The notes under the pieces are model-generated. The model ran no database searches. It saw nothing but the letters and a program-made list of their open reading frames with translations, and was not told the origin of the DNA. Shown one piece after another: positions 14,681 through 54,840 of a DNA stretch of 64,000 nt. Source of the stretch: Microcoleus sp. (GTDB lineage: Bacteria > Cyanobacteriota > Cyanobacteriia > Cyanobacteriales > Microcoleaceae); assembly GCA_042408215.1 (NCBI GenBank), contig JAYFMW010000001.1, positions 59,627-123,626 on the forward strand. Direction: 5' to 3'. The translations under genes and the position numbers were made by a program. Numbering within the stretch: position 1 is the first letter of the stretch; every line of letters starts with the position of its first letter.

Positions 14681-16060
14681 GTGGTAACGCTCTCTAATTC
14701 CTATGTAAGCGGTCGCGACCAAGAGTCCTCCGGGTTCGCTTGGTGGTCTGGTAACGCTCGTTTGATCAACCTTTCCGGCAAACTGCTGGGCGCCCACGTC
14801 GCTCACGCTGGCTTGATCGTTTTCTGGGCCGGAGCAATGACTTTGTTTGAAGTCGCTCACTTTATTCCAGAAAAGCCCATGTACGAACAAGGCTTAATCT
14901 TGATGCCCCACGTCGCTACCTTGGGTTGGGGCGTCGGCCCTGGCGGTGAAGTCACGGATATCTTCCCCTTCTTCGTAGTTGGCGTTCTCCACTTGATTTC
15001 ATCTGCTGTTCTCGGTTTGGGCGGCATTTATCACGCCGTTCGCGGCCCGGAAGTCCTCGAAGAATACTCTTCTTTCTTCGGCTACGACTGGAAAGACAAG
15101 AACCAGATGACCAACATCATCGGCTATCACCTGATTTTATTGGGTGGCGGTTGCTTGCTGCTGGTTGCTAAGGCCATGTTCTTCGGCGGTGTCTATGACA
15201 CCTGGGCTCCGGGCGGCGGCGACGTGCGTATTATCACGAACCCAACTCTCAACCCCGCTGTGATTTTTGGCTACTTGGTTCGCTCTCCTTTCGGTGGCGA
15301 AGGCTGGGTAGTTAGCGTCAACAACATGGAAGACATCATCGGCGGTCACATCTGGCTGGGCCTGATTTGTATCGGTGGCGGTGTTTGGCACATTTTGACC
15401 AAGCCTTTCGGCTGGGCTCGTCGCGCCTTAATCTGGTCTGGCGAAGCTTACCTGTCTTACAGCTTGGGCGCTTTGTCCCTCATGGGCTTCATCGCTTGCT
15501 GCTTTGTCTGGTTCAACAACACTGCTTACCCTAGCGAATTCTATGGCCCGACGGGCCCGGAAGCTTCTCAAGCGCAAGCTTTGACCTTCTTGATCCGCGA
15601 CCAACGCTTGGGTGCTAACGTCGGTTCTGCACAAGGCCCGACCGGTCTGGGTAAATATCTGATGCGCTCTCCTACTGGCGAAATCATTTTCGGCGGTGAA
15701 ACGATGCGTTTCTGGGATTTCCAAGGCCCTTGGTTGGAACCTTTGCGTGGTACTAACGGTTTGGATTTGAACAAAATCAAGAATGATATTCAGCCTTGGC
15801 AAGCTCGCCGCGCGGCTGAGTATATGACTCACGCTCCTTTGGGTTCTTTGAACTCTGTGGGCGGTTTGGCGACTGAAGTGAACGCATTTAACTTCACTTC
15901 TCCTCGTTCTTGGTTGTCCTGTTTCCACTTTGTGATGGGTTTCTTCTTCTTGGTCGGCCACTTGTGGCACGCGGGTCGCGCTCGCGCTGCTGTCGCTGGC
16001 TTTGAGAAGGGTATCAATCGTGAGACGGAAGCGGTACTTTCTATGCCTAACTTAGACTAA
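14681..16060 (+). CDS. psbC: Photosystem II CP43 protein
   Basis: GTG start with GGAGG upstream; [18 protein letters not shown]... Confidence 0.99.
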
Positions 16061-29892: not shown

Positions 29893-30987
29893 TTAAAACA
29901 TATCCTTCAAAACTTGTAAAATCAAATCCCCATCCACTCGATCGCTCACCGCAGCCTCACCCAAGCGCACCGGTAGCACAAACCGCACCTTGCCATCCTG
30001 CACCTTTTTGTCCAATTGCAAACTCTTCAAAATCTCCTCAACATCTATACCAGCCGGCAATTTCGTAGGCAAACCAGCCTTTTCGATCAAAGCTAACTGA
30101 CGCCCGTCGCACTCAGCATCCCACATTCCCAACTCCACAGCCAACCGGCTCGAAGCCACCATCCCGATACTCACACCTTCCCCGTGATTCACCAGCTTGT
30201 AACCAGTCAAACTTTCCACCGCATGGCCGATAGTGTGTCCGTAATTCAAAATCGCCCGCAAACCCGACTCCTTCTCATCCTTGCTTACCACCTCCGCCTT
30301 AGCTTGGCAAGACCTGCTCAAAATTTCTGCCAGCAAATCCGCCTTCACGTAGCGCATTTGATCCAAACGCCTGCAACTCTCCAACTTCCCGAACAATTCA
30401 GCATCCCAAATCACCCCATACTTAATCACTTCCGCCATTGCCGATCGAAACTCCCTCGCCGGCAGAGTTTTCAGGACATCCGGGTCAATAAACACCAAAC
30501 GCGGCTGGTGAAAAGCCCCAATTAAATTCTTCCCTAAAGGATGGTTTACCCCGGTTTTACCACCAATAGAAGCATCAACCATCGCCAGCAGCGAAGTCGG
30601 AACTTGCACAACATTAATTCCCCGCAACCAAGTCGCCGCCGCAAAACCCGTGATATCCCCAACCACTCCGCCGCCCAAAGCCACCATTGTCGAAGAACGT
30701 TCTAAGCGGTTTTCCAAAGCCGCGCCGTAAATCTTCTGCACCGAATTTAAAGTTTTGTACTGTTCCCCCGGTGGTAAAATGCAGTTACCGACATGAAAAC
30801 CCGCCGATTCTAGGGCCGCAGCCGTCTTTTCCCCGTAATGCCGAAAAATCGACTGATTCGAGACCAGCAGGACTTTTTTGCCCAAATTCAGCCCGCCCAG
30901 CAGCGTGCCGAGTTCGTCTAAACCGCCGGAACGCACGCAAACATTGTAAGATTGTGGGCCCAAGTCAACTTTAATTACTGATTGCAT
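29893..30987 (-). CDS. aroB: 3-dehydroquinate synthase
   Basis: [39 protein letters not shown]. Confidence 0.97.
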
Positions 30988-31042
30988 ATTTATCTACTTT
31001 AGATATTAGATTTTAGATTATAGTTCTTATAGGTCTTTTTAT

Positions 31043-31341
31043 AAAGAATACCCTGAAAACCCTGTGACTTTAGTCCAGGGATGAAAGGGCGTTGCAGGAT
31101 TTATCCAGCCAGCCCTCTTTATGCAAGACACAAACCACATTCTGTTACCAGAAAAATGTGGGATGGATACACAGACGCAGGTCTATACCAGCAAATGCCT
31201 ACCACAAGTAGCCATAGACTCAGCAATGGGCGAGTGGGTAGTGGGTTATTGACAAACCCTTTAAGAATCAAGATTTGGGTGGATTCATCCCCCAAAGTTT
31301 GTCCTTAAGAATCCCCGTGTCTTTAGACCGGGGAGTGTCAA
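31043..31341 (+). mobile_element. 299-bp non-autonomous IS200/IS605 mini-element retaining tnpB 3' end/omegaRNA
   Basis: Preceded by TTTAT; LE hairpin CCCTG-TGACTTTAGTC-CAGGG; RE AAGAATCCCCGTGTCTTTAGACCGGGGAGTGTCAA; near-identical copy at 50409..50707. Confidence 0.85.
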
Positions 31342-31363
31342 TGATTGTTTTGGAGAAATTGCA

Positions 31364-31824
31364 GTCAGCACCCCGCACTCTCTGTAACGGCTTCATGCCT
31401 AAAACTTCAGTTAGTTGACCAGCTATCGTCTTAACTGACTACGTTTTTTGAGTCACGACACCGGGAGAATGCGTAGCTAGTTCCTCGCTCTGTCGTCAGT
31501 GGTTAAACAGTTTTACTCTTAGGTAAGACAGTGCTGCTGACCTAACAAGCTCATTAAACATTGACCGACAAGCTAACATTACCCCGAAAGGGAGGCTCTA
31601 AAAAAGAGCAAACCATTATGCGTACAGGGTGAAAGGTTTGAAGCAGTAATTGTCCTGTTGAAAGTTCATTACAAAAGAACCCCGAACTAAGTAATTCCAA
31701 GGCGGTAAATGTGTAAATATTCAAGGCGGTTTCAACCGCTAGTGTGATGCCCTTCCTCGTAGTCGAAGGGTCGTTTCCCTCTCAGGTCTAAAGACGCTGA
31801 GTTTCCCACTTACCGAGGATTTTT
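31364..31824 (+). ncRNA. HEARO / IscB-type omegaRNA element lacking iscB
   Basis: GTCAG start; TTGACCAGC..CTACGTT..GTCACGACACC..ATGCGTAGCTAGT..CTCTGTC..TAAACAG..ACAGTG..AACATTG..GCTAACATTACCCC; 3' hairpin CTCAGGTCTAAAGACGCTGAG; followed by ATGA. Confidence 0.8.
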
Positions 31825-31926
31825 ATGACTCTTAGCGGAATAATAACTTATTTCGGGCTGTTCGGCGGAATGCTGGGCGTGGCGACAGTGTTGATGTTTG
31901 GTCTGCGGGCTGTCAAACTCATCTAA
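31825..31926 (+). CDS. petL: Cytochrome b6f subunit PetL
   Basis: Manual translation MTLSGIITYFGLFGGMLGVATVLMFGLRAVKLI* (33 aa, single TM, GLRAVKLI tail); divergent from aroB. Confidence 0.88.
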   Translation: MTLSGIITYFGLFGGMLGVATVLMFGLRAVKLI

Positions 31927-32177
31927 TTTACCCTCTAATTTAGATGTGAGAACCAGAGGATTTAATCTCTGGTAAAAGTAAGATTTTGGCGATCGCATTT
32001 TCGGAAAAAATCTCTAGTTTGCTCTGTAGATTTACGGCGCAAGTGCGATCGCCCCTGAGCAAATAATTGATTTAAAGCAAAAAATATATTAACTCGCAAT
32101 CCTGCTTTCCCGTAAAATAACTCGTACCTCCCCCAAATCTCCAATCCAAAATCTAAAATCTAAAATCTAAAATTGAG

Positions 32178-41946: not shown

Positions 41947-42263
41947 GGGGCTGTGGCTCAGATGGATAGAGCAAGCGCCTCCTGAAGAATCGGGCACCTT
42001 GGCGGGAAACTCCAGGAGTGAATGTGGTCAAATTCGGTGAAACCTAAAGAGTTAATAGGTTCCTATGACTCTAAGGCAATACCAAGCCAAGCCTGAATTC
42101 ATGGCGATTATGCGATCGCCTACACTTGGAATCAGGAAGGTCTAGAGACTAGACGGCCACCACCTAAAGGCTGCAAGCCCACGGTGAAGGTATAGTCCAG
42201 AGAGTGGGGAAACTCACACAAATCTGAAGCGCTAGGTCGCCGGTTCGAATCCGGCCAGTCCCG
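41947..42263 (+). tRNA. tRNA-Arg(CCU) interrupted by a group I intron
   Basis: Exon 1 41947-41983 GGGGCTGTGGCTCAGATGGATAGAGCAAGCGCCTCCT; exon 2 42227-42263 AAGCGCTAGGTCGCCGGTTCGAATCCGGCCAGTCCCG; cloverleaf closes after splicing. Confidence 0.92.
41984..42226 (+). ncRNA. Group I self-splicing intron, 243 nt, no ORF
   Basis: Upstream exon ends in U and intron ends in G; core elements AAATTCGGTGAAAC (P), AATACCAAGCCAAG (Q), TAGAGACTAGA (R), AAGGTATAGTCC (S). Confidence 0.9.
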
Positions 42264-50342: not shown

Positions 50343-50408
50343 TGACCAATGTTTGATAAACACTAAAAATTCTACCAGGAAGTTGGGAGCCTGAGTTCAG
50401 AATTCTGA

Positions 50409-50707
50409 TTGACACTCCCCGGTCTAAAGACACGGGGATTCTTAAGGACAAACTTTGGGGGATGAATCCACCCAAATCTTGATTCTTAAAGGGTTTGTCA
50501 ATAACCCACTACCCACTCGCCCATTGCTGAGTCTATGGCTACTTGTGGTAGGCATTTGCTGGTATAGACCTGCGTCTGTGTATCCATCCCACATTTTTAC
50601 GGTAACAGAATGTGGTTTGTGTCTTGCATAAAGAGGGCTGGCTGGATAAATCCTGCAACGCCCTTTCATCCCTGGACTAAAGTCACAGGGTTTTCAGGGT
50701 ATTTCTG
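50409..50707 (-). mobile_element. Second copy of the 299-bp IS200/IS605 mini-element
   Basis: Reverse complement of 31043..31341 with few substitutions; again preceded by TTTAT and ending in TCAA. Confidence 0.85.
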
Positions 50708-52674: not shown

Positions 52675-53105
52675 GTCAGTAACTCATGTCTAAAGACGCT
52701 GAGCTTGTAAGAGTAATCGAAGCAAGCTGTACTGACCAGCCTCAGACTTTCGAGGTCTACGTTTTTTGAGTCACGACACCTTGGGATGCGTAGCTAGTCC
52801 CCTGCTCTGTCATCTGTAATTAAACAGTTCTAAAGTCACTGGAACAGTGTTGCAGGTCTAACAAGCTCTTAAAACATTGGCGAAGCTAACATTACCCCAT
52901 ACATGGGAGGCTCGTCGATCGAGCAAACCATTACGCGATCGCGGGTTGTGAAATTTGAAATGGTAATTGTCCCATTGAAAGTGCATTACAAAAGCACACC
53001 GAATTGAACAATCCCCCTGTAATGGACAGGGGGATTTCAATCCCCCTTGTCGTTTCCCACGAGCGGGCCGGGGCCGCTGAGTTTCCCACTTACCGAGTTT
53101 TTCTG
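52675..53105 (+). ncRNA. HEARO / IscB-type omegaRNA element lacking iscB (copy 2)
   Basis: GTCAGTAACTCATGTCTAAAGACGCTGAG 5' hairpin; same scaffold motifs as 31364..31824; shared end GCTGAGTTTCCCACTTACCGAG; followed by ATGA. Confidence 0.85.
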
Positions 53106-54339: not shown

Positions 54340-54840
54340 TTGACATCCTCCCCGCGCTCTCTGCGACGGGGATTCCTAAGCCTTACAACTTAGGTTTCTG
54401 TTTCATAGCAGAAGCCTTAATAGCAATTTAATGGGTCGTTGCATAGATCTCGATCCCCCTCGCATCCCCCTAAATAAGGGAGTAGGGTGTGAGTAGGGGT
54501 TGACGAAAGAGCAGAATCTTGTTCCCCCCTGATTAAGGGGGGTTAGGGGGGATCAGATTCTATGCAGCCTCATAAAAAACTGGTATAACAGATTTACTCT
54601 GTTCTGTTTTTCGTACCATGCTTGAGTTCTGATCTGGAGAGCTTTGTTGTAAACTAATCTTACACAGCCCAATGTGCGTCGCAATAGCGACTCTTGTTCG
54701 GGTGTTGGGTAAAATCGGTAACGGTGGGCTTTTTCCATCTTCACATTCTCGGTTGCTAATTGTGAAACTGTCAATCCCATATAAAGCCGTCCTTCTAGGA
54801 CGGGGTTTCAACCCTGGGCTTCGCTCCGCCCATTTTTCTG
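54340..54840 (-). mobile_element. Deleted IS200/IS605 tnpB element (LE, 5' tnpB fragment, inserted palindromic repeat, RE)
   Basis: TCAT|CAGAAAAATGGG..AAACCCCGTCCTAGAAGGACGG LE; MEKAHRYRFYPTPEQ..GCVRLVYN fragment from 54738; RE GGAATCCCCGTCGC..GCGGGGAGGATGTCAA. Confidence 0.85.

Follow-up and report, generated by a model that had tools for sequence, protein, structure and literature searches.

Why should a transposable element that encodes no protein lie exactly between the leader of a gene and its start codon, and how could it remain there? The question arises in a 64,000-nucleotide stretch of DNA from Microcoleus sp. (hereafter the window; host genome G000, 7.36 Mb, 45% GC), in which a 461-bp element carrying an omegaRNA, the guide RNA of the Cas9-ancestor nuclease IscB, directly precedes petL. 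The HEARO RNA is reportedly due to Weinberg et al. in 2009. The petL gene itself (31825..31926, + strand) is intact and encodes a 33-aa cytochrome b6f subunit (Pfam PetL PF05115, 47.9 bits) that is 100% identical to the PetL of the relative G005, with cpcT located downstream. The gene names petL, petM, rpsP, rplS, chlB, psb27 and pntA used throughout are based on Pfam matches and on N-termini read by eye.

On the upstream side, petL is flanked by the divergent gene aroB (29893..30987, - strand), encoding 3-dehydroquinate synthase (Pfam DHQ_synthase and DHQS_C), and by a protein-less mini-element of the TnpB family (IS605-type; 31043..31341, + strand). The surviving part of the native leader of petL, as judged by conservation in empty loci, occupies 31342..31363 (+ strand), contains the GGAG Shine-Dalgarno (SD) sequence at 31352-31355 and is predicted to be the 5′ guide of the omegaRNA. 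The leader ends in GGAGAAATTGCA at 31363, and the protein-less HEARO/IscB element (ISC, IS200/IS605 superfamily) extends from 31364 to 31824 (+ strand). In the window sequence the left junction reads TTTTGGAGAAATTGCA followed by GTCAG, and the right junction reads CCGAGGATTTTT followed by ATGACTCTT, which opens with the ATG of petL at 31825. Within the element, the HEARO/omegaRNA scaffold (31364..31582, + strand) matches the full Rfam model RF02033 with 111.4 bits (gathering score 83). It is followed, in place of iscB, by a non-coding tail (31583..31780, + strand), which recurs with 75-85% identity in some 20 sister elements. The transposon end (31781..31824, + strand), delimited by end comparison and folding, consists of a subterminal hairpin (31781-31801), a conserved GAGTTTCCCACTTACCG motif, GAGG at 31815-31818 and a T run; by position it is now the initiation region of petL. 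Ends of this type were found on 29 HEARO elements as well as on TnpA-bearing elements.

To locate the empty allele, we compared 79 petL loci from 78 other genomes of the genus. At 76 of the 79 loci (75 of the 78 genomes) the site is empty at exactly this junction, which fixes the element boundaries to the base. All 76 empty loci begin with ATGA, and the uninterrupted leader with GGAG at -12..-9, 8 nt before the ATG, is present at 75 of them; the empty allele, the boundaries and the ATGA target therefore stand as a sequence-only reading of the window had proposed. The distance between aroB and petL in the doubly empty allele is 77-80 bp, judging by the spacer lengths in relatives. In the three remaining loci an element sits at precisely this junction. 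Those of G089 and G046 are the element of G000 (94-97% identity over aligned columns); the one in G006 is another HEARO element, with 75-76% identity. The last 16 nt of the predicted guide match the empty petL loci exactly in 49/76 cases and with 0-1 mismatch in 72/76, indicating that the target is conserved between species; the same comparison for a second site, rpsP, gave 27/29. That the petL leader would serve as the guide, as had also been proposed, is supported by the IscB architecture described by Meers et al. (bioRxiv 10.1101/2023.03.14.532601). A search of the host genome for other targets of this guide found no site with at least 10 guide bases plus ATGA.

Several lines of evidence show that the element is a non-autonomous, PATE-like ISC element that carries an omegaRNA only. 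The first base of the omegaRNA coincides with the junction seen in relatives, insertion is at N/ATGA (the slash marks the insertion point) without target duplication, at petL as well as at rpsP, chlB and pntA, and the petL end family is also found on iscB elements (C8, C3) and TnpA elements (C13, C30). No remnants of IscB, TnpB or TnpA were detected within the 461 bp by tblastn at E ≤ 1, and no iscB frame or remnant follows the omegaRNA as it would in a full ISC2/HEARO element. Together with the RF02033 match, this bears out the earlier view of an IscB-less omegaRNA element. The tail yielded no Rfam match beyond HEARO; in several sister elements it contains a conserved short ORF, which is frameshifted in all three petL copies. 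The petL scaffold has two non-standard pairs in the stem closing on its 3′ end and scores below most other copies in the genome, which reach 167.6 bits, and the petL copy may be inactive. We also considered an IStron or another self-splicing element. However, no intron family was matched at E ≤ 10 in 31000-31950, and the joined form seen in RNA library X2 corresponds to the empty allele in DNA. A promoter and terminator scan returned no + strand promoter-like site upstream of petL and no terminator. Elsewhere in the window we noted a group I intron match (41971-42219, + strand, 57.5 bits) and a match to the IsrR antisense RNA (15089-15275, - strand).

An element of this kind would need IscB and TnpA in trans, and a genome search identified candidate intact genes for both in association with the same end family. 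The genome contains 70 HEARO matches, 64 of them over the cut-off. Long IscB frames lie behind HEARO in 19 cases, 14 of which possess a start codon along with the complete set of four catalytic motifs; two of these 14 end in the petL element's end family, and one of the two is confirmed as guided_IscB. Twelve strong TnpA matches lack an internal stop, and two identical TnpA (IS200/IS605 transposase) genes lie in elements with the petL end family and an ATGA junction. These proteins are plausible helpers of the petL element. Six iscB elements have different 5′ ends and yielded no ATGA end (C30:110370, C5:414672, C5:441871, C21:57733, C7:93727 and C14:56949), with several of them running out near a GCGATCGC-like palindrome. 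In the petL elements of G089 (L086) and G046 (L118), the conserved GAGTTTCCC end motif is changed at its three T positions, where the transposase guide would be expected, and the two copies may no longer be excisable.

The mini-element upstream, missed in the sequence-only reading, is 299 bp long, is inserted after TTTAT and ends in TCAA. It has 14 genomic copies of at least 95% identity, and its ends match those of longer elements of 1.45-1.55 kb, one of which encodes guided_TnpB. It is absent from most relatives, and the two insertions can occur independently: G005 and G008 carry the 299-bp element without the HEARO element, and G089 and G046 the HEARO element without the 299-bp one. In G000 the two elements are separated by 22 nt, the only stretch of native leader that still adjoins the HEARO element. 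This short segment would act both as the 3′ guide of the TnpB-type element and as the 5′ guide of the HEARO element. A HEARO element lies within 20-22 nt 3′ of 2 of the 14 copies of the 299-bp element, compared to a rough expectation of 0.007. A near-identical copy lies on the minus strand of the window at about 50400-50700 and precedes a plsX-like ORF. A third element, 440 bp long and ending in TCAA, follows another TTAT of the same 77-bp aroB-petL spacer in 12 genomes (G004, G010, G016, G020, where the end alone was seen, G045, G047, G061, G071, G086, G087, G088 and G094). One genus thus offers four petL alleles: empty, TnpB-only, HEARO-only and doubly occupied.

To assess whether the position at petL is exceptional, we located the 3′ junctions of 58 HEARO matches out of 70 (of the 12 dropped, one later proved start-abutting), cut the elements out in silico and classified the restored sites with a home-made gene caller, which misses petL and petM. 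The junction patterns required ATG after the end, and the resulting tally of 57 ATGA and one GTGA is therefore not an independent test of the target, for which the empty alleles are part of the independent evidence. Of the 58 junctions, 31 fall on called starts and 3 near a start, with 20 between genes and 4 within coding sequence, against a genomic ATGA background of 2,040, 586, 13,859 and 33,401, respectively, in which start codons make up about 4% of all ATGA sites. Even when compared only to ATGA sites that are non-coding, near a start or at a start (2,040/16,485, 12.4%), 31/58 is a strong excess (p = 6e-14 assuming independence, although the copies are not independent). A rule that does not use the caller gave 36/58 versus 3,134/49,886 (6.3%). 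The ORFs downstream, where picked as likely genes, match Pfam families in 16 of 20 cases, mostly from near the first residue. Start-codon parking is a genome-wide property of these elements and is not due to chance. The window itself contains a second example, a protein-less HEARO element at 52675..53105 (+ strand, Rfam 150.1 bits) that ends at the ATG of rpsP (Ribosomal_S16 from 53106); of 58 relatives with a match, 29 were examined and all 29 have this junction empty, and the element end contains no SD.

Next, we compared groups of copies, with the control groups (HEARO-less elements and relic ends) sorted by hand. Elements that lack HEARO but share these ends and the ATGA target lie at starts in 6/23 cases (26%; p = 0.06 versus background), less often than the 31/58 of the HEARO elements (p = 0.03), and bare or degenerate relic ends lie at called starts in 11/14. 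Enrichment at starts increases as copies decay: HEARO copies with a sibling of at least 93% identity are at starts in 4/12 cases compared to 32/46 for the rest (p = 0.04, counts including five starts added by hand); the age effect is weak, with p = 0.06 at a 90% cut and p = 0.09 in a rank test. Of 15 HEARO copies located between genes, 11 have a gene on the same strand ahead of them (background 45%), in 9 of the 15 within 200 nt (versus 23%, p = 0.002). Taken together, the HEARO-less, relic, sibling and same-strand counts point to selection after insertion, plus an extra part linked to HEARO. Speaking against this, occupied ATGA starts resemble the remaining ATGA starts in the orientation of the upstream gene (22/36 versus 1,375/2,003), operon position (3/36 versus 351/2,003, p = 0.18) and the -10 motif.

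Related ends also occur without a full element. In the window, a bare related transposon end at about 54770-54840 directly precedes a 317-aa ORF (54841), which we take to be PhoH-like, next to a short TnpB-like fragment on the opposite strand. Elsewhere in the genome, bare ends of 25-60 bp persist as leaders in front of genes resembling hisG, GH57 and SDR (C6:923550, C20:689448, C14:104256 and others), and some elements carry tandem ends, type B followed by type C with GAGG (C28:196387, C30:557246, C4:3521 and C30:230698).

The distribution of single copies among species suggests how such sites become occupied. The petL element is found in 3 of 79 genomes (G000, G089 and G046), with their closest relatives empty: G008 (7.6% from G000) and G005 (21%) lack it, as do G002 and G003, the near kin of G089. 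G000 differs from G089 and G046 by 31% at aroB fourfold sites, compared to 7-8% in the element and 3-4% in its tail, and G089 differs from G046 by 16% at aroB fourfold sites and by 3% in the element. No whole-length match to the petL element was found elsewhere within the carrier genomes. With regard to co-conversion of flanking markers, codon 6 of petL is ATA in all three carriers and in 13 of 80 sequences overall, and the rest of petL is typical of each lineage. An aroB tree (174 columns) resolves few branches; the carriers require three changes on it, and one origin is possible. A similar picture was observed at chlB, where the same element is found in at least six genomes (G000, G057, G086, G013, G023 and G056), with 12 other genomes checked and found empty; the five aligned copies differ by 1.6-3.2%, versus 10-29% at chlB fourfold sites. 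At both petL and chlB, patchy occupancy of one conserved site goes together with an element younger than its flanks, as in homing. Given that sister copies have diverged by 15-25%, constraint from structure alone would probably not keep one copy at 97%. The simpler reading of these alignments is that the occupied allele spread laterally, while ordinary recombination, or an old insertion followed by many scarless losses, may also account for them. Copies seem to exchange patches, with one variant motif occurring in different elements, which blurs the dating.

Among four of 20 listed RNA library runs examined, contigs from three libraries (three studies) bridge both junctions of the petL element with few differences, and library X2 additionally contains the empty joint. 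Such contigs, which may derive from DNA and are uninformative on strand, start or level, indicate that the occupied allele exists in other populations, and beside the empty one in one library.

The sequence-only reading had offered a different answer to our question, namely that the element supplies a replacement SD and that start codons serve it as a safe harbour. In its strong form, this would be an evolved design in which the element end provides an SD to any gene on which it lands. The petL copy does have such a sequence: GAGG at 31815-31818 lies 6 nt before the ATG, its predicted pairing with the anti-SD (-5.9 kcal/mol) approaches that of the native leader (-6.4 kcal/mol), the 16S 3′ end of the genome carries the standard anti-SD, and GAGG is kept in all three petL carriers. 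petL would then be translated from a leader built by the element. The replacement SD is real at petL, but it does not extend to the family as a strategy. An SD of -3.4 kcal/mol or better, a level reached by 41% of 4,669 called ATG genes, is present at start-abutting copies of family A, to which petL's own end belongs, in only 2/24 cases and of family B in 0/8. These two families make up 32 of the 40 start-abutting copies, and we reject a general replacement SD on this 2/32 and on the 8 matches at three loci to the GAGGA end versus 360 to the non-GG end pattern across 79 genomes. Families C and D carry SD-like runs (3/3 and 5/5), but in family D the run is also present at 6/6 non-start sites. 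All three GAGGA loci precede real ORFs, as expected by chance at the base rate. In longer folds the GAGG is predicted to be mostly paired (unpaired probability 0.16-0.54, depending on the folding window; z -0.9), and the accessibility of the start region did not clearly differ between filled and empty alleles (0.52 versus 0.53 in family A). A safe harbour alone also leaves the enrichment above ordinary intergenic ATGA sites unexplained. We consider the design very improbable; the GAGG looks like a later, site-specific change, possibly selected, rather than a feature of the family. At L190, L194 and L196 (G043, G053 and G042), a relic end preceding a 496-aa ORF has acquired GAGGA together with an A-rich spacer and has the look of a domesticated leader.

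Improbable too, if less so, is a preference of TnpA for start-codon ATGA at the moment of insertion, caused by local single-strandedness or the wider context. Repeated occupation of the same start, by four different elements in four genomes at pntA and by two at petL, is what such targeting predicts, and young copies are still at starts in 33% of cases. However, by a rough estimate each start should have gained about one further occupant across 78 genomes in any case, and on these grounds we do not regard petL and pntA as special hot spots. Moreover, five identical HEARO-less copies are at starts in 0/5 cases and their family in 2/9, and no common flank motif beyond ATGA was apparent by eye. 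A more serious rival, although we still regard it as unlikely, dispenses with the nuclease altogether. Elements would land on ATGA at random, copies in genes would be purged and those between genes eroded, and copies at starts would last because they become leaders; the omegaRNA would be a passenger, and the patchy sharing would result from ordinary gene flow and scarless loss. The concentration of relic ends at starts agrees well with this account, as do the HEARO-less elements found there, the lack of a promoter-context signal among occupied starts and the gene flow reported between Microcoleus lineages (PMC10923798). It does not account for the roughly twofold stronger enrichment of HEARO elements over same-end elements that lack HEARO, for the same-strand genes ahead of intergenic HEARO copies, or for elements that are several-fold less diverged than the silent sites of the adjacent gene while the gene itself is typical of its lineage.

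The explanation we favour, with slightly better than even confidence, is retention: start codons are over-represented mainly because copies of this non-autonomous ISC element are kept there after insertion. The sites are probably ones of homing at transcribed, conserved leader-plus-ATGA sequences and not a built-in safe harbour. The element is observed at N/ATGA, here the petL start, where a TnpA from elsewhere would have placed its ancestor. A host transcript directed at petL would then run through the leader, the omegaRNA and petL, the leader becoming the 5′ guide. IscB from elsewhere would load this RNA and cut chromosome copies with the empty leader-ATGA joint, and repair from an occupied copy would restore or spread the element, as in the scheme of Meers et al. 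Insertions at starts would be kept since the reading frame stays whole, the host promoter lies upstream and the target is conserved between species; the last 55 bp or so of the element would become the new initiation region of the gene.

Extending retention further, we tentatively suggest that protein-less omegaRNA elements are chromosomal homing elements that move between cyanobacterial species, with IscB in trans converting empty start-codon alleles. Under homing, start codons would be converted because leader plus ATGA is the sole harmless site that is both transcribed, providing the guide, and conserved, and over time the ends would be left behind as 5′ UTRs of core genes. Because the TnpB- and IscB-type elements would share the 22-nt guide at petL, an allele would have to be doubly occupied to be safe from both nucleases.

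Much of this builds on known systems. Earlier publications cover the element kind, the N/ATGA target, the dependence on a host promoter, derivatives without a protein and retention through cleavage; what we add are the controls pointing to retention and the sharing of site-resident copies between species. In the parts of Kapitonov, Makarova and Koonin (2016, PMC4810608) drawn on here, cyanobacterial ISC transposons such as ISC1-1_MA of Microcystis aeruginosa insert at N/ATGA. The petL element shares with the ISC1-1_MA type a 5′-GTCA terminus, a position directly before ATGA and the lack of target duplication, and with ISC elements in general the ends and target common to TnpB-type IS605B elements and, as predicted, mobilisation in trans by a Y1 transposase; unlike them, it has no iscB. 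The term 'start codon' occurs nowhere in the main text of that paper. The petL element is likewise a full-length match to HEARO RF02033 (Aliaga Goltsman et al. 2022, PMC9755519), but no HNH ORF follows. Among the titles and abstract openings searched, we found neither start-codon parking nor cross-species sharing of site-resident copies.

The closest parallel is with ISGst5-type IscB elements and their PATE derivatives, for which the portions of Meers et al. covered here describe a guide transcribed from outside, cutting of the empty joint for retention, and a bias towards upstream genes in the same orientation, 'preferentially generated or retained'. As in ISGst5/PATE, the petL element is protein-less and has a predicted 5′ guide from the host flank, and the ISGst5 TAM TTCAT reads ATGAA on the RNA strand; the first four bases of petL, ATGA, are both the insertion target and the predicted TAM. 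Unlike our analysis, that study, in the same portions, counts the orientation of the upstream gene rather than abutment to a downstream start codon and contains no cross-species sharing of one site-resident copy. Since the upstream gene is divergent at petL, transcription here must come from the petL promoter or from the upstream mini-element. Similar to homing endonuclease genes, as outlined in the sections used of a 2026 review (PMC13565253), a selfish element occupies a conserved site while an endonuclease would attack the allele that lacks it, but the petL element is neither an intron nor an intein and has no nuclease in cis. In the same sections, 'non-restorative' allele-to-allele homing of transposons is presented as theoretical, with plasmid and IStron support, and as awaiting validation. 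If the population pattern holds, the petL and chlB sites would be natural chromosomal test cases for such homing by OMEGA transposons, would explain why the ATGA target persists in this element family, and would reveal how transposon ends can take over as leaders of conserved genes such as petL, petM, rpsP, rplS, chlB, psb27 and pntA.
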